A program made the position numbers and the translations under genes. Shown here piece by piece: positions 2,088-18,634 of a stretch of DNA of 20,000 nucleotides. Source of the stretch: an uncultured virus (IMG/VR IMGVR_UViG_3300025133_000091) (taxonomy: Duplodnaviria > Heunggongvirae > Uroviricota > Caudoviricetes > Crassvirales). Each line of letters starts with the position of its first letter. Position 1 is the stretch's first letter. Where the stretch lies: IMG/VR virus record IMGVR_UViG_3300025133_000091. One strand, given 5' to 3'. The notes under the pieces were generated by a model, which worked only from the letters and a program-made list of their open reading frames with translations, was not told the origin of the DNA and searched no databases.

Positions 2088-2528
2088 TTATCTATCTTTA
2101 TCTTTAATCATATCATCTATAGCTTTATTGTAAACTTTATCTGTATATGATTTGTTATTGTAGAATACACTTCTATCTGAAGTGGGTAAGTCTTCCTCAC
2201 CTAATAGGATTCTATATATCCTACTTATTATTTGTGAACATTTAAATGAAGTTTTAAATACAGAGTATTTTATCGTTGTACGATTTCTTTGTCTCCAAAC
2301 CTCTATCCACCCTTCTTTTCTAAGTCTCTCCCAACGGTTCTTATCCCAACTCATGGTATAAACTCCATCTATAAACTCTTGTCGTGTAAATCTTTTTTTA
2401 CAATCTAAATAAATTAATAGTTCTAAATCTGCGTCTGTTAACCCGTAAGTTTTACAGACCCACTTTCTAGTGAGCCTGTAATACTTAAGGATATTCATTT
2501 CACGCAAATCTTGCGCGGTTAGTCTCAT
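2088..2528 (-). CDS. Hypothetical protein, possible winged-helix DNA-binding fold
   Basis: YGLTDADLELLIYL...FTRQEF...LRKEGWIEVW resembles a MarR-like wHTH pattern. Confidence 0.5.
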   Translation of the reverse strand: MRLTAQDLREMNILKYYRLTRKWVCKTYGLTDADLELLIYLDCKKRFTRQEFIDGVYTMSWDKNRWERLRKEGWIEVWRQRNRTTIKYSVFKTSFKCSQIISRIYRILLGEEDLPTSDRSVFYNNKSYTDKVYNKAIDDMIKDKDR

Positions 2529-2535
2529 TCAAGAT

Positions 2536-2901
2536 CTATGCCTCTGCCTGAATAGCTATCGTACAACCTGTGATGTCAGAATCAAGATATATTCCGTTAT
2601 TATCATCAGCTACAACAATAAAAGAACTTTTATGCGCGTCAGCACTTAAAGCGCTAACTATACTGTGTGCGACTTTTTTGTGTGTATCTGCTTTAATTGT
2701 TAAAACTACCGCGTCTGATATGTGATTAAAGTCATTTGAATCTGGTACAGAAACTTGAGATTCAAATGCCATTGTTAATGCAACAGAACTAGTTCCAGTA
2801 TTATACATACCTTTAAAAGTGCTTTCTCTAAAGGCACCAGCATCTCCTAGTGCTGCAAATGGGTCTGTTGCTGTTTCCATAAAATAAAGTGTTTTTTCCA
2901 T
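2536..2901 (-). CDS. Hypothetical protein, paralogue 3 of tandem triplet
   Basis: Shares LYFME, IV(I/V)ADD and C-terminal AEA with its neighbours. Confidence 0.8.
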   Translation of the reverse strand: MEKTLYFMETATDPFAALGDAGAFRESTFKGMYNTGTSSVALTMAFESQVSVPDSNDFNHISDAVVLTIKADTHKKVAHSIVSALSADAHKSSFIVVADDNNGIYLDSDITGCTIAIQAEA

Positions 2902-2926
2902 GTTTTTTATTTTTTATTTGTTAATA

Positions 2927-3289
2927 CTAGGCTTCTGCCGTTACTGTTATTGTACATCCACTAATATGTGTGCTAGCGTACTTACTCTCGTTGTCATCAG
3001 CGATAACAATAAAGCCATCACTGTGTACTCCGTTTATAGTGTCGATTATGTCTGCTATAGCCTCTTTGTTTTTGTTAGCTGTAGCTAAATCTAGAACAAC
3101 AAAATCGTGAACGATAGATGTATCATTTGAATCGTTAACGGTTTGCATTCCTTTAAAATCCATTTGGATTTTTCCATTTGCTAAATTATGAAAACCTTTA
3201 AAACTAGATAGTGGCCATACTGCCATATCACCAACTGCGTTAAAAGGATCTGTTGAGGTCTCCATAAAATAAAGATATTTTTCTGTCAT
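2927..3289 (-). CDS. Hypothetical protein, paralogue 2 of tandem triplet
   Basis: KYLYFMETSTDPF...FIVIADD...GCTITVTAEA. Confidence 0.8.
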   Translation of the reverse strand: MTEKYLYFMETSTDPFNAVGDMAVWPLSSFKGFHNLANGKIQMDFKGMQTVNDSNDTSIVHDFVVLDLATANKNKEAIADIIDTINGVHSDGFIVIADDNESKYASTHISGCTITVTAEA

Positions 3290-3314
3290 TTTTTTATTTT
3301 TTTTTTAATTTTTA

Positions 3315-3686
3315 TTAAGCCTCAGCTCTAACAGTAACAGCACAAGCAGTAATATTCGCGTCAGCGTATACACTATTTGAGTCATCTGCTATAACAATAA
3401 GTCCATTATTTCTTTTTCCAGCTCCACCATATATTAGATCGCTAATGCTTTCTATAACTGCTTTATGTGTGTCTGTTCCGATAGTTAATCTTACTGAATC
3501 CTTTTTAGAAGTAGTATCGTCTGAATCAGATTCCGTTAACTTTGGTTCAAAAGCTAAATCTAACGTCGTGTTGTTAACACTTTGAAATCCAACAAATCTT
3601 TCTAGTGGATAACAAGCCATATCCGCTAACGCATCAAAAGCCCCATCTGTTTGCTCCATAAAATAAAGATATTTTTTATGTTCCAT
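3315..3686 (-). CDS. Hypothetical protein, paralogue 1 of tandem triplet
   Basis: KYLYFMEQTDG...LIVIADD...ACAVTVRAEA. Confidence 0.8.
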   Translation of the reverse strand: MEHKKYLYFMEQTDGAFDALADMACYPLERFVGFQSVNNTTLDLAFEPKLTESDSDDTTSKKDSVRLTIGTDTHKAVIESISDLIYGGAGKRNNGLIVIADDSNSVYADANITACAVTVRAEA

Positions 3687-6233: not shown

Positions 6234-8093
6234 CTATTCTGGTATATAACCAGATTTTATCATGTTTTGTTGTACAGTTCCACCTTTCACAGCGTTTCTA
6301 TATATTCTATTATCACGCATTTCCATTGGACTTTTACCTTTTTTAGCTTGTTGAGCTTGATACCACTTGTCATTAGCTATTTTGTACTGTTCTTGCTTCT
6401 CCTTCCAAGTACCTTCAAAGTCACTTGGTTTAGGTTTTCTATCTGGAGTTGTAGTGACCTGTTCAACTACTGGTTTAGTTGTAGTTTCTTCAACTACTGG
6501 TTCGGTTTTTGTTTCTTCTTGTACTAAATCAGTAACACCTCCTCCGTGACCAGCTTCTATTTTATCAAGGTTCTGGTTTAGTAAGGCTTCTTCTTTTTCA
6601 GCTTTAATTCTTTCCTCTTCTGCCTTCTCAGCTGCCCACTGCTCTTCCATCATTAACTCCATTTCTTCCATCTCTTTATCCTCCTGCTCTTCTTTCTCTT
6701 GCTCGAGCTGAGCTTCATATGATTCCGGCAATGTGCCTTCGTTTTTCATTTTTACGTACGCGTCAAATCTTTCTTGAGTGGTAACAACATCATCCCCATA
6801 GTATGCTTTTGCTTCGGCTATATTTTGGGTCCTTAAAGCTTTCTCCGCTTTTTTCTCTTGTTGTGCTACAAGTTTGTCAGACGTTTCTTTAGATATCCTT
6901 TTACCCTCTGGGGTATAATACTTTTCCTTCCCATCGTCTAACCAGCCCATAGTTCCATCGCCCATATCTCCCCAAGTGTCACCGTAGTTACTTTTAGCAC
7001 CTTCTTTAGGCACCCACGTTCCGTCTTCTCCCACCTGCATATCTGTTTTTTCTACCCCGTAATTTTCAGAAGCAGCTTGCATGTTTTTATCAGTTTGTAT
7101 ATCCTCGGGACTCGTATATGCTCCAGCTAACACCCACTCATCTTTATCATCGTTATAGTGTAGTTGTGTGCCCTGTTTATTTGGATTTTCTAGCAGTTCC
7201 GTATACTCCTTTCTAATATCAGGATCATCAAGATCAAAGTCCTCTCCATATTGTTCTCTCATATACTTATCGGCTTTTTTCATTTGCCTATCAGTAAATT
7301 CGGTTGTAGCCACCGTCCCAGTTGATTTTTGCAATTCTAACTTTTGCTTATTTGTTGGTAATGGACGAATAGATTTCGGTTCTAGAGTAATAGGCTTATT
7401 AGCCTCTTGCTCTGCCTCAAATTCAGCTTTCTTTGCAGCCTCCTCTTCTTTCTTTTTTATATCTTTATACCCCTTAGTATTTTTGTAGTCCGTCTCAGGG
7501 TCGTCAATATGGCCCTTACCTACATAGTTAGCATCTTTCTCAGCTTGTATTCTAAGTTTTTCCGCTTCTTTTTCAGCCTTTATTTTCGCATTCTTTTCTG
7601 CTCTTTTCTTTTTACCTTCAGCGCCTTTAGTTTGTATATCTTCTATTGCACCCTCTACGACATTCCCAAGTTCATCAACAATATTCTCTCCTAACTTAAA
7701 TAAACCATTTCCTATCGCTACTGGAACTAACAAAGCTCCTCCAACTAAAGTGCTTACGCCTTCAACAATTTTACCACCTACATCTAGAAGATTTTTACCA
7801 AACTTTTTTCTTTTAGCTTTCCTCTCTTGTTTTCTAGCATCTTTCGCCGCTTGTTCCTCTGGTGTTAATTTTTTCTTCTCTTTCTTTTCAGGCACATCTA
7901 TATTTATCTTGTCAAGTTCGAAATCTATTGCTTGTGGTTTATATGATTTACCCAGAGCGTCAGCGGCACCAACCAAACTAGCATCCGCTTTAGTCCTAGA
8001 CTGAGATACCACAGATTGTGCTTTAGCTTTCGCTATCGATGCTTTATGATTTGCTGTACCCTTTATCACAGGGCGATTCATTCTAAATGCCAT
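6234..8093 (-). CDS. Large K/E-rich coiled-coil protein, candidate internal virion/ejection protein
   Basis: 619 aa, highly charged, one hydrophobic segment (TLVGGALLVPVAIG). Function inferred only. Confidence 0.6.
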   Translation of the reverse strand: MAFRMNRPVIKGTANHKASIAKAKAQSVVSQSRTKADASLVGAADALGKSYKPQAIDFELDKINIDVPEKKEKKKLTPEEQAAKDARKQERKAKRKKFGKNLLDVGGKIVEGVSTLVGGALLVPVAIGNGLFKLGENIVDELGNVVEGAIEDIQTKGAEGKKKRAEKNAKIKAEKEAEKLRIQAEKDANYVGKGHIDDPETDYKNTKGYKDIKKKEEEAAKKAEFEAEQEANKPITLEPKSIRPLPTNKQKLELQKSTGTVATTEFTDRQMKKADKYMREQYGEDFDLDDPDIRKEYTELLENPNKQGTQLHYNDDKDEWVLAGAYTSPEDIQTDKNMQAASENYGVEKTDMQVGEDGTWVPKEGAKSNYGDTWGDMGDGTMGWLDDGKEKYYTPEGKRISKETSDKLVAQQEKKAEKALRTQNIAEAKAYYGDDVVTTQERFDAYVKMKNEGTLPESYEAQLEQEKEEQEDKEMEEMELMMEEQWAAEKAEEERIKAEKEEALLNQNLDKIEAGHGGGVTDLVQEETKTEPVVEETTTKPVVEQVTTTPDRKPKPSDFEGTWKEKQEQYKIANDKWYQAQQAKKGKSPMEMRDNRIYRNAVKGGTVQQNMIKSGYIPE

Positions 8094-8335
8094 TAGTAAT
8101 TGTATTTTCGTTTAGTTGCACCTGATCTACTGTTCTTAGCTCTATTCTTACTAGCAGGAATACACTTTCCACTAGCGTGATCAAAATCATAACCTTTAGG
8201 ACAATTCTTCCTCTGTGCATCTCTTTTCTTCTTCTTTCCCCAAGCAGACATAGCCGACTTCTTGTCTCTAACAGCCTTTCTCTTAGCTGCTGCCGGTGAT
8301 AATTTCTGTTTTAGTTTAAATGGTGTACCTTTCAT
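8093..8335 (-). CDS. Small basic protein, minimal/degenerate HNH-like
   Basis: First gene of the left arm; GYDFDH...SKNRAKN resembles the DH...NRxxN pattern of small phage HNH proteins. Confidence 0.45.
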   Translation of the reverse strand: MKGTPFKLKQKLSPAAAKRKAVRDKKSAMSAWGKKKKRDAQRKNCPKGYDFDHASGKCIPASKNRAKNSRSGATKRKYNY

Positions 8336-8341
8336 ACTATG

Positions 8342-8371
8342 TATGATTACATGGTAAAGAATTTATTTACA
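8342..8371 (-). promoter_or_regulatory. Class II promoter candidate (TGTAAA-N14-TGTAATCATA) for the left arm
   Basis: Same boxes and spacing as 18605-18634; ends 6 nt before the ATG at 8335. Confidence 0.6.
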
Positions 8372-8372
8372 G

Positions 8373-8518
8373 TGTGACAATAGCCTGTTACTCCCTATCT
8401 CTACTAATCTATCTCTACTCCTAGATATTACTCTAGTAATATCCTTAAGTAGGAGTATTAAAAAACGAATACTGTGACAATAGCTAGTTACTCTAATACT
8501 TAGCTACCTAATGTCATA
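8373..8518. promoter_or_regulatory. Operator/iteron-like cluster of TGTGACAATAGC sites
   Basis: 21-nt direct repeat (19/21 identical) at 8373 and 8473, inverted half-site ending at 8518, and a hairpin at 8416-8457 between them. Confidence 0.6.
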
Positions 8519-8740
8519 TAAAAAGTATTGTGGATATAGGGGTAGAGTACAGTACCCTCCTCTATAGAAGGCCCGGCCTCAACTAAAACGCATCCTACTT
8601 TGCCCACCGCCCCTTCGTTTGACCCAAATCTCCAATATGTTTTCACATTACAAACTATAATATATCTCAACACAAATAATAATTTTTCTCTAACATTTCA
8701 GCAAATGCCCCCGCCCCTGGGCTCGCTGTATAGCATAGCT

Positions 8741-8774
8741 CACAAGCTAGTCACGTGTGTTGTTAGATAATATA
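8741..8774 (+). promoter_or_regulatory. Class I promoter candidate, copy 1
   Basis: CACAA-gctagtc-ACG-tgtgttgtta-GATAATATA. Confidence 0.75.
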
Positions 8775-8808
8775 TATGTAAGCAAAATGATTAGCTAACT
8801 GCACAGTA

Positions 8809-8842
8809 CACAAAGTTAATACGACTTATAATAGATAATATA
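8809..8842 (+). promoter_or_regulatory. Class I promoter candidate, copy 2
   Basis: CACAA-agttaat-ACG-acttataata-GATAATATA, upstream of the 8878 ORF. Confidence 0.75.
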
Positions 8843-8877
8843 AATGAAAATAATAACTAACTAAATTAAATTAAATT

Positions 8878-9123
8878 ATGTCAAAAGTAATGAAAGTTGA
8901 AGAACTTAAAACTAAAAGATTCGTAATCAGAAAAAGTCTGATCGGAAAGAATACTGTAATAACATTCGTAAACAAAAAGAATGAGACAGTAAAGTATAGT
9001 CATGACGAAGTATACAATACACACAAAGAACGATTTGAAAGTATGAACTGTTTCGCTAAGTACAAAAACTATACTAACACTAATGCGATGCCAGCATTCT
9101 GCAGAGACTTACAAATTAAGTAA
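8878..9123 (+). CDS. Small basic early protein, paralogue A
   Basis: 81 aa; aligns end to end with 9647..9901. Confidence 0.85.
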   Translation: MSKVMKVEELKTKRFVIRKSLIGKNTVITFVNKKNETVKYSHDEVYNTHKERFESMNCFAKYKNYTNTNAMPAFCRDLQIK

Positions 9124-9139
9124 GTTCTCTCTGTGAAAC

Positions 9140-9187
9140 TGTGACACTAGCCTCTTACTAGATCCTTATTAAGTGGCTTATGTCACA
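9140..9187. promoter_or_regulatory. Inverted operator-like site
   Basis: TGTGACACTAGCC...GGCTTATGTCACA. Confidence 0.6.
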
Positions 9188-9264
9188 CTTTTCACTACAC
9201 CTAAGATCGATCTAAAGATCGTGGTGTATAGCAGCATGTATAGCACTCGCCGCTCGCCACTTGT

Positions 9265-9298
9265 CACAAACTGATCACGATCACTAATAGATAATATA
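9265..9298 (+). promoter_or_regulatory. Class I promoter candidate, copy 3
   Basis: CACAA-actgatc-ACG-atcactaata-GATAATATA. Confidence 0.75.
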
Positions 9299-9300
9299 TA

Positions 9301-9381
9301 TGTAACGATAAAGACTGGACGTAGTAACGCCGCTGCACCGACTAACTTGAAAGAAAGTTGACTCGTCCACCTTTAGTTACA
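9301..9381 (+). ncRNA. Candidate small structured RNA
   Basis: Nested stems TGTAAC/GTTACA, TAAAG/CTTTA, TGGACG/CGTCCA plus two inner hairpins; starts immediately after promoter copy 3. Confidence 0.55.
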
Positions 9382-9406
9382 AATGTAAATAGTAAATAAC
9401 GCTCGT

Positions 9407-9440
9407 CACAATGTCAATACGAACACTATTAGATAATATA
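9407..9440 (+). promoter_or_regulatory. Class I promoter candidate, copy 4
   Basis: CACAA-tgtcaat-ACG-aacactatta-GATAATATA. Confidence 0.75.
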
Positions 9441-9471
9441 GTTGTAAAAACAAACAAACTGACAAGTATAA

Positions 9472-9506
9472 TAAGTTACAAATGTGAACTAAGTTACAAA
9501 TGTGAA
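9472..9506 (+). repeat. Tandem 17-nt direct repeat TAAGTTACAAATGTGAA x2
   Basis: Exact copies at 9472-9488 and 9490-9506. Confidence 0.9.
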
Positions 9507-9575
9507 TTGTACACTTGGAGAGTCAGAGTAGTACCTCGTAAGTAAATATATCACTTAAATGAAATATATACCTTA

Positions 9576-9609
9576 CACAATGTAAATACGATAAGTAAAA
9601 GATAATATA
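9576..9609 (+). promoter_or_regulatory. Class I promoter candidate, copy 5
   Basis: CACAA-tgtaaat-ACG-ataagtaaaa-GATAATATA, upstream of the 9647 ORF. Confidence 0.75.
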
Positions 9610-9646
9610 TATACAAACTAATTAATAAACTAAAAATAGTAAAGTT

Positions 9647-9901
9647 ATGAGCAAAATCGCTAAAAAAACTGAGAATCAGGTTTTAAAAAGTAAAAGATTC
9701 GTAGTACGTAAGTCGTTGGTAGGTAAAGGTCAAGTGATCGAATTTACTAACAAAAAAGGAGTGACTGTAAAGTATAACCACGATGTAGTGTTCACTATCA
9801 TGAAAGATGGTTTGGAGAAACTTGCTTGTTGGGCAAAGTACAGTTCTTACACTGCAACTAACAACATACCTACAATACTAAGAGGTAAAGAGTTAGTTTA
9901 G
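9647..9901 (+). CDS. Small basic early protein, paralogue B
   Basis: 84 aa; LKSKRFVVRKSLVGK...FTNKK...TVKY.HD shared with 8878..9123. Confidence 0.85.
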   Translation: MSKIAKKTENQVLKSKRFVVRKSLVGKGQVIEFTNKKGVTVKYNHDVVFTIMKDGLEKLACWAKYSSYTATNNIPTILRGKELV

Positions 9902-9910
9902 TAGTTAGTT

Positions 9911-9983
9911 AGGTCGGTAGATCGGTGGTCGCTGGACAAACAAAGTATACCAGTAGTAAACGTACCATCACTACCTTCCTTTT
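9911..9983 (+). terminator. Long imperfect hairpin with short T tract (terminator or processing site)
   Basis: AGG/CCT, GGTAG/CTACC, GGTGGT/ACCATC, GCTGG/CCAGT followed by TTT. Confidence 0.4.
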
Positions 9984-10085
9984 ATAAAAATACAATATAA
10001 TATGGCAAAGAAATTAGAAAATAGAGTGGCAGAGATAGTGATGATAACACTAACAATAATAGTAATAATATTAGCAAATTAAGAT

Positions 10086-10331
10086 ATGAATAGAGAAGAA
10101 TTAAAAAGATTATTTCTAACGTTTCCAACGTTGGATATACCAGAGAAAAAACAAATAATAGTAGAGATAGATAAGAATCCTCACTGGCCAGGTTATGGTA
10201 CCATAGAAATATTAAGAGATGGACCAAATGGATATTCTTCATTTAAAACTCACCAAGAGCTTCCAATGAAGTATGTGTTCAATTGTAACGAGTATAGGTC
10301 AGGTGAGTATGAACTAATAGTAAAAGAATAA
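10086..10331 (+). CDS. Hypothetical early protein
   Basis: 81 aa ORF in a tightly packed operon. Confidence 0.7.
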   Translation: MNREELKRLFLTFPTLDIPEKKQIIVEIDKNPHWPGYGTIEILRDGPNGYSSFKTHQELPMKYVFNCNEYRSGEYELIVKE

Positions 10332-10332
10332 T

Positions 10333-10566
10333 ATGAAATATCCAAGAATAGTAGGGTGGTCAGTAGTGATCGGTATGTGGAGTATAATGGGTTGTGCTAT
10401 GACAGAAATGAAGAATTCTGCTATACACGAAACAAGTAATACCGCGGAAGATATGATCGAGTGGATCGAGCACGATGTAGAGTCAGGTAAACTAGATAGT
10501 ACGATCGCGGACACTTATATAGAGAACTTAGAAGGAATAATAATAGATTTAGGATGTACGAGATGA
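10333..10566 (+). CDS. Putative lipoprotein/membrane-anchored protein
   Basis: Basic N-terminus, hydrophobic stretch, IMGC lipobox-like motif. Confidence 0.55.
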   Translation: MKYPRIVGWSVVIGMWSIMGCAMTEMKNSAIHETSNTAEDMIEWIEHDVESGKLDSTIADTYIENLEGIIIDLGCTR

Positions 10567-10775
10567 GTTGGAAAGGAGAAGATAAGTATCACTGGAATGA
10601 AGAGACTATAGAGACTCTTAGAAAACAAATGGATTGTAAAGCAGGTATAACCATTGATTTAGTGGAAGATGTAAACGAGTGGATAAAAGATAATATATCT
10701 AGTGAGTATGAAGAAGACTATATAGATATGGGAATACACTTAACAAAAATATTAATTGGAGATATAAAATTATGA
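10554..10775 (+). CDS. Hypothetical acidic protein
   Basis: ORF track; the true start may be the ATG at 10563 (ATGA overlap). Confidence 0.7.
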   Translation: MYEMSWKGEDKYHWNEETIETLRKQMDCKAGITIDLVEDVNEWIKDNISSEYEEDYIDMGIHLTKILIGDIKL

Positions 10776-11014
10776 GAGATTATAGTATAACAAGAAGAAA
10801 AGGTGAGTGGTATGACGCTAAAGTAACTGATAGTTTCGGTGTTGAGCATCAAAACTACTTTGAACACGCTCACGAAGCAAATGACTGGATAATGTACATA
10901 TGGGAAAAGGAATTACCACCATTAACTGATGCAGAACGCGAAGAATTACTCGCAAGTGCTATACACGATTGCAAGCAGATGGATAAGCGATCAGGCAGAA
11001 GAGCAATACTATGA
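10772..11014 (+). CDS. Hypothetical protein
   Basis: 80 aa, ATGA coupling. Confidence 0.7.
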   Translation: MRDYSITRRKGEWYDAKVTDSFGVEHQNYFEHAHEANDWIMYIWEKELPPLTDAEREELLASAIHDCKQMDKRSGRRAIL

Positions 11015-11107
11015 TAGTATTACTAATAACAATAATAGGTACGTTTCTACTAGGTAGATACGCTATTAAAAAAGGACAAGAAATAGAAGAAAATAAAAAG
11101 AAATAAT

Positions 11108-11275
11108 ATGAAAGAAGCAGTAATTATAGTAGGAACTTTACTTATCACTTCATGCGGAACATTTAGTAAGGTAACCGAACGAGAAAAAGAATTAAACTAT
11201 CAAATAGATAAAGCTTATTTCGAGTATACCACAGTGAGAGACTCTTTAATACTTAAGTACAATTACAATAAGTAA
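11108..11275 (+). CDS. Putative small lipoprotein (55 aa, not in ORF track)
   Basis: MKEAVIIVGTLLITSC-GTFSK: short signal peptide with an LITSC lipobox-like motif. Confidence 0.65.
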   Translation: MKEAVIIVGTLLITSCGTFSKVTEREKELNYQIDKAYFEYTTVRDSLILKYNYNK

Positions 11276-11330
11276 TGGTAGGTTGGGTGATAGTAACTGC
11301 CATAGTGATGTGGTTAATAAGAAAATTAAG

Positions 11331-11438
11331 ATGAAAGAAATAGATCAAATGCTCGACCAATGGATACATAATAGTATTATAAGAGCGAAATTAAGAGAAT
11401 TAATCGTTCACAAACTAAATACGACAACTAAAAGATAA
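11331..11438 (+). CDS. Micro-ORF (35 aa)
   Basis: MKEIDQMLDQWIHNSIIRAKLRELIVHKLNTTTKR; its 3' end overlaps promoter copy 6. Confidence 0.45.
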   Translation: MKEIDQMLDQWIHNSIIRAKLRELIVHKLNTTTKR

Positions 11439-16969: not shown

Positions 16970-17066
16970 ATACGAACAAGAAATGTACCGTGACATTAGC
17001 CGGTTAACTAAAGCGGTTGAGAAACTAGTAAAAATATTAGAACAATTAGCAAAAGAACAATCATGA
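16962..17066 (+). CDS. Coiled-coil micro-protein (34 aa)
   Basis: MTKYEQEMYRDISRLTKAVEKLVKILEQLAKEQS; overlaps both neighbours. Confidence 0.5.
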   Translation: MTKYEQEMYRDISRLTKAVEKLVKILEQLAKEQS

Positions 17067-17194
17067 GTGAAGAATTAATGGAAAGAATAAAGATATTTAA
17101 TGAAATTAAATATGGTAATAATGATAATGAAACAAGAATTATTTTTACAACATTGAAACCATTGGGGACTGTGACAACAGCCCCTAAAGTATAA
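17063..17194 (+). CDS. Micro-ORF (43 aa)
   Basis: ATGA-coupled; MSEELMERIKIFNEIKYG.... Confidence 0.4.
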   Translation: MSEELMERIKIFNEIKYGNNDNETRIIFTTLKPLGTVTTAPKV

Positions 17195-17215
17195 TAGTAA
17201 TAGGCTAATGTCACA
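17170..17215. promoter_or_regulatory. Inverted operator-like site overlapping the 17208 start codon
   Basis: TGTGACAACAGCC...GGCTAATGTCACA. Confidence 0.65.
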
Positions 17216-17828
17216 CAATAGAAATTTAAAAGTACTAAACGACAGGCGCATCGTATATAAGAGAGATCCTATTGACGATGTACCAACTCATCAAACAGAT
17301 CAGTATATGTTCTTCGAACAGGGGACTTATGAATGCTATACACTGTTCGCATCCAAAGCTAAGATCACGACTTACAAGAGCCTTAAATGGCATCTATTAA
17401 CGTTATGGTATCTTAACCCAGATCTTGACCAAGATGAGTTCATGCAAATTGCAGAGATTATATCAATCAAAGAACAGGGTTTCACTTCATTCACAATACA
17501 CATCGATCTTCTTAGGAAGATGGTATATGACGTGAGCATGTTAGATTTAGATGAACCACCTAAAAATAAACTACGTAAAGTTATATTTAAATATGGTAGT
17601 GGTTTAACTAAGGAAGAGAAATTATCTATAGTAGGTGAATTGATCGGTAGAACTAAACGTATACATGAAGATGATATATACCAGTGTATGTTAGATATAA
17701 ACGACTGGGGTAAAAAAATTACAATAGATAGAGTAGCCGGACTATTAAACTGTTCAACTAGAACCATTCACAGAAATATGGGTGAAGAATTAAAACGAGA
17801 AAAAGAATTATTAAACCAACAATTATAA
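17208..17828 (+). CDS. DNA-binding protein with C-terminal helix-turn-helix
   Basis: ITIDRVAGLLNCSTRTIHRNM is a typical HTH pattern. Confidence 0.75.
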   Translation: MSHNRNLKVLNDRRIVYKRDPIDDVPTHQTDQYMFFEQGTYECYTLFASKAKITTYKSLKWHLLTLWYLNPDLDQDEFMQIAEIISIKEQGFTSFTIHIDLLRKMVYDVSMLDLDEPPKNKLRKVIFKYGSGLTKEEKLSIVGELIGRTKRIHEDDIYQCMLDINDWGKKITIDRVAGLLNCSTRTIHRNMGEELKREKELLNQQL

Positions 17829-18586
17829 TGAAACACTATAATATACAAAACTATATAAGATACAAGAAGGATTTAGAATCAACCTTAGCTAGACTAGAAG
17901 GCAAGATGTGGGACGAATATACTAGAGATGAGCTTGTTATCAAGTTCATGCCTTTAACAGAGAACTTAGCTAGAAAATTTGCAACATCACAACAAGCATC
18001 AGGTGTTATGGCAATAACAGATATGATACAAGAAGGTCACTTAAATTTAATTAAAGCAGTTGACCGCATTGATTGGGAAAGAATAAATACATCTGAAGAT
18101 CCTGAGAAAACTCTAAAGAGTTTTTTGTCTAAAAGAATTAAAGGTGGTATACGAAGAGAGATAGATAAAAACAGAGGACAAATGAGATTGCCTGAACACG
18201 TTACCAATAGTATACGTAAGAACTTTGGTAAAGACAAAAAAGCTGTAGCTATGTTTTTTAACTCTATATTCTTAAGCATTGATGCTGGTACTAGAGATGA
18301 TGACGATCTATTCTTACAGATTGAAGACAAATCAGAACCCTATAACCAAGTGTTCTTAAACATGTATTTAACAAGTTTATTGAAGCAGCACTTGGTTGAT
18401 AAGGAATATCATGTATTAAGATTAAGCTATGGACTTGATTGCGAAAAGCACTCAGCTAAAGAAATTGCAGAATACTTAGGTATCGAAGGTAGTGGTGCTT
18501 ATGTTAGGGTTTCACAGTTAAAAAAGCAAGCAGTTGACAAATTAATTGCTAACGTAGATCACTCACAAGTGCTTGACTATCTATAG
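17828..18586 (+). CDS. Phage sigma70-family RNA polymerase sigma factor
   Basis: Region 2 DMIQEGHLNLIKAVDRID, MRLPEH; region 4 LSYGL...SAKEIAEYLGI...RVSQLKKQAVDKL. Confidence 0.9.
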   Translation: MKHYNIQNYIRYKKDLESTLARLEGKMWDEYTRDELVIKFMPLTENLARKFATSQQASGVMAITDMIQEGHLNLIKAVDRIDWERINTSEDPEKTLKSFLSKRIKGGIRREIDKNRGQMRLPEHVTNSIRKNFGKDKKAVAMFFNSIFLSIDAGTRDDDDLFLQIEDKSEPYNQVFLNMYLTSLLKQHLVDKEYHVLRLSYGLDCEKHSAKEIAEYLGIEGSGAYVRVSQLKKQAVDKLIANVDHSQVLDYL

Positions 18587-18604: not shown

Positions 18605-18634
18605 TGTAAATTTATTAAAAAACGTGTAATTATA
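18605..18634 (+). promoter_or_regulatory. Class II promoter candidate (TGTAAA-N14-TGTAATTATA)
   Basis: Intergenic, upstream of erf; matches 8342-8371 on the minus strand. Confidence 0.6.

Follow-up and report, generated by a model that had tools for sequence, protein, structure and literature searches.

The stretch of DNA analyzed here ("the window", 20,000 nucleotides) covers the final 20 kb of a 66,856-bp record of an uncultured Crassvirales virus (IMG/VR IMGVR_UViG_3300025133_000091). It carries the gene for a 206-amino-acid (aa) helix-turn-helix (HTH) protein whose start codon lies within an inverted repeat, and this repeat recurs at the junction between a late/structural arm (~50 kb), which extends leftward from position 8335, and an early/replication arm, which extends rightward from position 8878. 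The site occupies three fixed positions, is restricted to one clade of phages and is under selection at the level of DNA. The HTH protein is very probably its cognate binder. Of the mechanisms considered for protein and site together, an early-to-late switch ranks first, and we give it about even chances. The elements concerned are as follows.

8373..8419, no strand: site A', one intact 20-bp arm whose partner has decayed, lying 2 bp from the −35 in the late promoter motif
8473..8518, no strand: site A, a 46-bp quasi-palindrome at the early/late junction
9140..9187, no strand: site B, a 48-bp palindrome just past the first early gene and 90 bp ahead of the next early-type motif
17170..17215, no strand: site C, a 46-bp quasi-palindrome over the HTH start codon, with its far arm within the 3' end of a 43-aa open reading frame (ORF)
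17208..17828, plus strand: the 206-aa HTH protein, the predicted cognate binder, with an N-terminal alpha/beta plus helical domain (residues 1-128), a linker helix and a C-terminal HTH (~154-190)
17828..18586, plus strand: a phage sigma-70-like factor, overlapping the HTH stop codon

A preliminary description, made from the letters of the window, had placed inverted half-site pairs at 17170, 9140 and 8473, and a motif scan bears this out, with the ATG at 17208 falling inside the right arm of the 17170 site. The half-site TGTGACAnnAGCC is exact at 8373(+), 9140(+), 9175-9187(-), 17170(+) and 17203-17215(-) and occurs with one mismatch at 8473 and 16989. When up to two mismatches are allowed, there are 12 matches against 3.1 expected, a number that none of 200 shuffles reached. 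A two-arm matrix, trained on start-codon sites only and used with a score threshold of 17-18, picks out four places genome-wide (8373, 8473, 9140 and 17170); its maximum on 0.9 Mb of shuffled DNA was 12.1. The wide spacing first given for the cores, 32-34 nucleotides, was measured as 32 (8473), 34 (9140) and 32 (17170). The spacers had been called unconserved, which holds for the central ~7-10 bp and not for the rest: the inner DNA is partly conserved, the arms being 18-20 bp long. The complete site is two-fold symmetric and 46-48 bp in length, and both arms follow the half-site TGTGACAwTAGsywnTTAc/a with its three blocks GTGAC, AG and TTA. As for the two half-sites taken to be lone, the one at 8373 proved to be the full arm of site A', which is apparently a local duplication of site A. 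The other, at 16989-17001 inside a small ORF, is present in 1 of 180 loci, that of the window itself, and was rejected as a functional site, probably a chance match, because no relative conserves it.

The site was followed in a partly redundant set of homolog loci spanning 44-100% identity; a distant homolog, P0239 (31%), lies outside this set. In 187 of 192 loci it lies over the HTH start or immediately ahead of it, and further copies are found at the junction in 71 of the 75 loci with at least 9.9 kb of upstream DNA. Among 100 distinct upstream sequences the core spacing is 32 bp in 71 and 31-34 bp in 97. Fourteen of 15 near-complete genomes have one to three strict-pattern sites, all of them at the HTH start or no more than 12 kb upstream; G008 has no strict-pattern match, yet its locus (L060) scores by matrix. 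A search from the DNA side returned 159 matches, 50 at an HTH start, 68 beside first early genes and 41 unassigned, of which 32 had 300-bp flanks only and 9 were near contig ends. In 596 Gb of prokaryote genomes there were 48 matches, 38 of them on contigs of the phage clade binned into metagenome-assembled genomes (MAGs); the other ten were seven low-scoring matches, two high-scoring ones without a recognizable neighbor and one in a Salibacteraceae MAG. This last copy (L371:1501-1547, score 45, on a 1.29-Mb contig) is strong, has no clade gene within 1.5 kb and lies 380 bp past a tRNA-Ser gene and a partial repeat of that gene's 3' end. It is possibly a captured phage fragment at the edge of an island, and as such a hint to the host. 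A degenerate extra site resembling an auxiliary operator was also seen inside the 5' end of the sigma gene in 11 of 187 loci, at ~+640 to +690 from the HTH start (L009, L010, L037, L252, L254, L255, L276, L310, L316 and L319; in L071 at another offset).

Of 139 Ser-starting genes, 133 have TCA as their second codon, compared with 540 of 2117 (26%) of other Ser codons, and the site persists where the start codon moves downstream (L055, L082, L061/L078 and L244-L248). Because of this bias and this persistence, we conclude that the site is selected as DNA and not as codons. An inverted repeat could also act as a hairpin or cruciform, in RNA or single-stranded DNA, in place of a double-stranded operator, and at C such a structure could mask the start codon. 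Over 116 elements (A and B sites only), arm-to-arm match is no higher than in independent draws: 0.10 vs. 0.27 at position 8, 0.49 vs. 0.58 at position 12, and 0.50 vs. 0.43 at position 13, where the shuffle count was 133 of 2000. Because the arms do not co-vary, we consider a hairpin extremely improbable.

The HTH gene product is 204-213 aa long in the 40 loci translated, and the sigma gene is conserved downstream of it in 58 of 58 loci. In the structure model the HTH lies at about residues 154-190, and fold matches include TetR-like HTHs. HTH_11 is found at E ≤ 0.1 in 39 of 42 family members (best 2.9e-5); the window protein by itself gives E = 0.11, which is not significant, and has nothing significant in Pfam or PHROGs. 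Foldseek found no match in the PDB at E ≤ 0.001 and one homolog in BFVD (A0A516MIB4). Sequence searches of the PDB gave spurious matches only, tblastn against cultured phages and plasmids gave none, and no homolog was present in 41 kb of MW202828 or in the 12 Panino ORFs tested. The family is very large (at least 8000 clusters), and the motif is held by ~800 viral contig stretches. Judged by these searches, it is a family without a name or a cultured member in the collections covered.

That this protein is the cognate, autoregulated binder had been proposed at the outset, and comparative evidence supports it well as the predicted binder. Autoregulation is what a site lying over an HTH gene's start codon usually signals. 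Where C carries GCGAC in place of GTGAC, A/B show this change as well in 12 of 17 genomes (vs. 2 of 63), and the linked sites lie 5-9 kb apart within a genome. The variant is clustered by kinship, with at least three changes forced on a quick tree (103 of 169 proteins); its concerted occurrence suggests one shared reader, though part of it reflects kinship. A tie between residue 153 and the variant (13 of 14 vs. 3 of 66) was not accepted, as non-His residues also occur there without the variant. The reader could instead be a 146-aa late-arm ORF, one of the small early proteins with a KRFV motif or a host factor, the HTH-sigma operon being merely a target. Site B comes after the KRFV gene in many genomes, the 146-aa ORF (2088-2528, minus strand; phrog_17028, unknown function) looks winged-helix-like by eye and may be a second regulator, and the Salibacteraceae copy stands apart from clade genes. 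However, the site is practically absent from cellular genomes, which speaks against a host factor, and it sits on the start of the HTH gene, is kept there down to 44% identity and moves with the start region. We regard another binder as quite unlikely. No description of the operator or of the 206-aa protein was found in the portions of the literature covered (including PMC5332604, PMC5862659 and PMC8776804).

The features around the sites that bear on function are these.

8093..8335, minus strand: first gene of the late arm
8345..8370, minus strand: class II promoter-like motif GTAAA-N14-TGTAAT, at the head of the ~50-kb late arm
8519..8640, no strand: conserved block right of A, made up of an A-tract, ATATAG, GTGTTGCCCC, AAAA and a C-run, whose spacing is constant throughout the clade
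8750..9620, plus strand: cluster of the early-type motif CGA-N8-AGATAATA around site B, with AGATAATA at 8765, 8833, 9289, 9431 and 9600
8878..9123, plus strand: first early gene, of the KRFV family, with a paralog at 9647-9901
18606..18631, plus strand: second copy of the class II promoter-like motif, without a palindrome, ahead of the ERF/replication genes

The class II motif, a putative target of the phage sigma, has five scoring positions in the genome compared with 0-4 in shuffles. For 54 of the 75 A sites a promoter was scored, and in 37 of these 54 the gap between site A and the −35 is 2-7 bp. Measured to the −10, the distance is 21-26 for 36 of 52 sites and 29-54 for the others, without clear phase. 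The ERF gene is preceded by a class II motif without the palindrome in 113 of 123 loci. At the HTH start of the source genome no class II motif scores, and in none of 180 loci is there an early-type motif within 400 bp upstream of that start. Repeats of the early-type motif extend over 8765-11433 of the window and, in 34 loci with two junction sites, occur on the early side of site A only. The late arm of G000 has only about three class II motifs on ~50 kb, which raises the question of processive antitermination.

The preliminary description had left the choice between an early/late switch and a replication initiator. The switch is favored because one copy of the site adjoins the late-arm promoter motif; for an initiator there are weak hints only. 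In the switch, two protein molecules would bind, one per 18-20-bp arm. The HTH would contact GTGAC, the outer block, and the inner AG and TTA blocks would be read by the N-domain or linker, an arrangement that would explain the wide core spacing. The protein would hold down early-arm transcription, including that of its own gene and the sigma gene, and would likely gate the promoter-like motif at the head of the late arm. Since site C turned up neither an early-type nor a class II motif, B and C may serve as roadblocks on read-through early transcripts, resulting in negative feedback on the HTH protein and sigma. At A, directly upstream of the −35, the protein would more likely be a co-activator. 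Replication genes, which have the class II motif and no site, would then need sigma only, while structural genes would need sigma and the HTH protein and would start later.

Several observations weigh against this picture. The distance from A to the promoter is continuous over 2-7 bp and extends up to 35 bp, which is loose for a contact activator and makes the sign of the effect at A uncertain. The roles assigned to the promoters rest on motif position only. The core motif and the recognition helix (RTI[HY]RN) are both nearly invariant, so that their co-variation, suggested earlier as a check, cannot pin the pair. The C-rich block beside A is unexplained by a switch. Finally, homologs lacking the upstream repeat had been expected to speak against an autoregulated binder, and the start-codon site is absent in 3 of 80 metagenome loci, which are near-identical or closely related; L305, the longest of the three, keeps both junction copies.

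Two known kinds of regulator resemble the proposed switch. In Bacillus phage phi29, the early and late promoters diverge, and protein p4, acting at inverted-repeat sites between them, represses the former and activates the latter. Here, too, a site lies next to a late promoter motif between divergent arms, but there is a third site, 8 kb away, over the start codon of the regulator gene itself, and a phage sigma is likely to read the late promoter motif. The matches listed included none to p4 in sequence or fold. Lambdoid CI/Cro and other autoregulated HTH repressors have a two-fold operator (~17 bp) and a site at their own gene start. The present system shares the HTH, the two-fold symmetry and the site at the gene start but differs in its 46-48-bp operator, its three-block arms of 18-20 bp and its C-terminal HTH. 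No integrase was noticed in the ORF list of the window, and no search was aimed at integrases. By analogy, the system would work like phi29 p4 or the lambdoid operators, yet it belongs to no family tested.

The block at 8519-8640 is a candidate packaging site or origin. It starts ~30 bp right of A, and a C-run is present in 65 of 75 A flanks compared with 6 of 57 B flanks. Site A might be an accessory element for packaging or of the terminus, at which the protein would bend the DNA or mark it for terminase, with B and C controlling the protein level only. The fixed inner spacing of the block fits such a role, as do nine pattern loci that end within 800 bp on the C-run side of A. However, these ends show scatter (39-771 bp), assemblies are also prone to break in this repeated region, and the HTH gene is located beside sigma in the early arm, a long way from the terminase genes. 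A packaging role is distinctly improbable. Contigs from four runs have no common start or end, and such contigs cannot show termini.

An origin could be read from the same region. The DNA-binding domain of ColE2-P9 Rep consists of PriCT-1 plus an HTH (PDB 3vw4; PMC5862659), and the HTH protein could be a primase-less origin binder of this kind, a PriCT-like bundle plus HTH, with two molecules on A. The AT-rich center or flank of A would be opened and the phage primase-helicase loaded. As in iteron plasmids, C would be an operator for autorepression and B would titrate the protein. The clade was seen to have neither a DNA polymerase nor an initiator of known type. Against this, the 206-aa protein has no catalytic primase or Rep domain, and the PriCT likeness of its N-domain consists of noise-level fold and language-model hints that fail profile tests, with no HMM or profile match outside the HTH. 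No primase family match was found among members of the protein family, longer fused forms not having been searched for. The target also differs from that of ColE2-P9 Rep in being a symmetric site in three places, and skew is confounded by coding strand. As to the earlier question of a Rep/primase or a regulator, the protein is not a ColE2-type Rep, the primase domain being absent; an origin-binding role is possible, though we hold it doubtful. A combined scheme, in which a stand-alone PriCT-HTH module that lost its primase domain melts the AT-rich A to load primase-helicase for a host polymerase and by the same binding activates the late promoter, would couple the start of replication to structural genes in an abundant marine clade, and we think it unlikely. 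If true, the origin reading would explain how a polymerase-less clade starts replication.

The source phage resembles the phi38:1-like Flavobacteria podophages (Pervagoviridae, Panino, elemo) in its capsid and in the presence of GroEL/GroES, portal and terminase families. Among the matches displayed, the capsid proteins of Panino, elemo and an uncultured spring phage share 40-47% identity with its own, and 15 of 85 capsid matches are from Cellulophaga phages. None of 50,697 phage records matches the HTH or sigma protein, and Calle and Panino encode a DNA polymerase, whereas none was seen in the source clade. The capsid likeness fits "group 2" of the phi38:1-like phages, putative Flavobacteriaceae phages in Nishimura 2017 (PMC5332604). 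Sequencing runs containing the stretch are mostly marine metagenomes. The paralogous KRFV proteins have no Pfam or PHROG family and are among the first early genes in most relatives displayed. Three tandem paralogous ORFs of ~120 aa each (2536-3686, minus strand) have no family matches, and a 3383-aa protein without a PHROG match (G000:C1:8805-18956, minus strand) is possibly an ejection protein.

For these marine Flavobacteria phages, the proposed switch and its operator provide an exact predicted protein-site pair and a testable wiring diagram for the likely timing of genes. The long three-block half-site suggests a two-domain mode of reading, and it could serve as an orthogonal operator.
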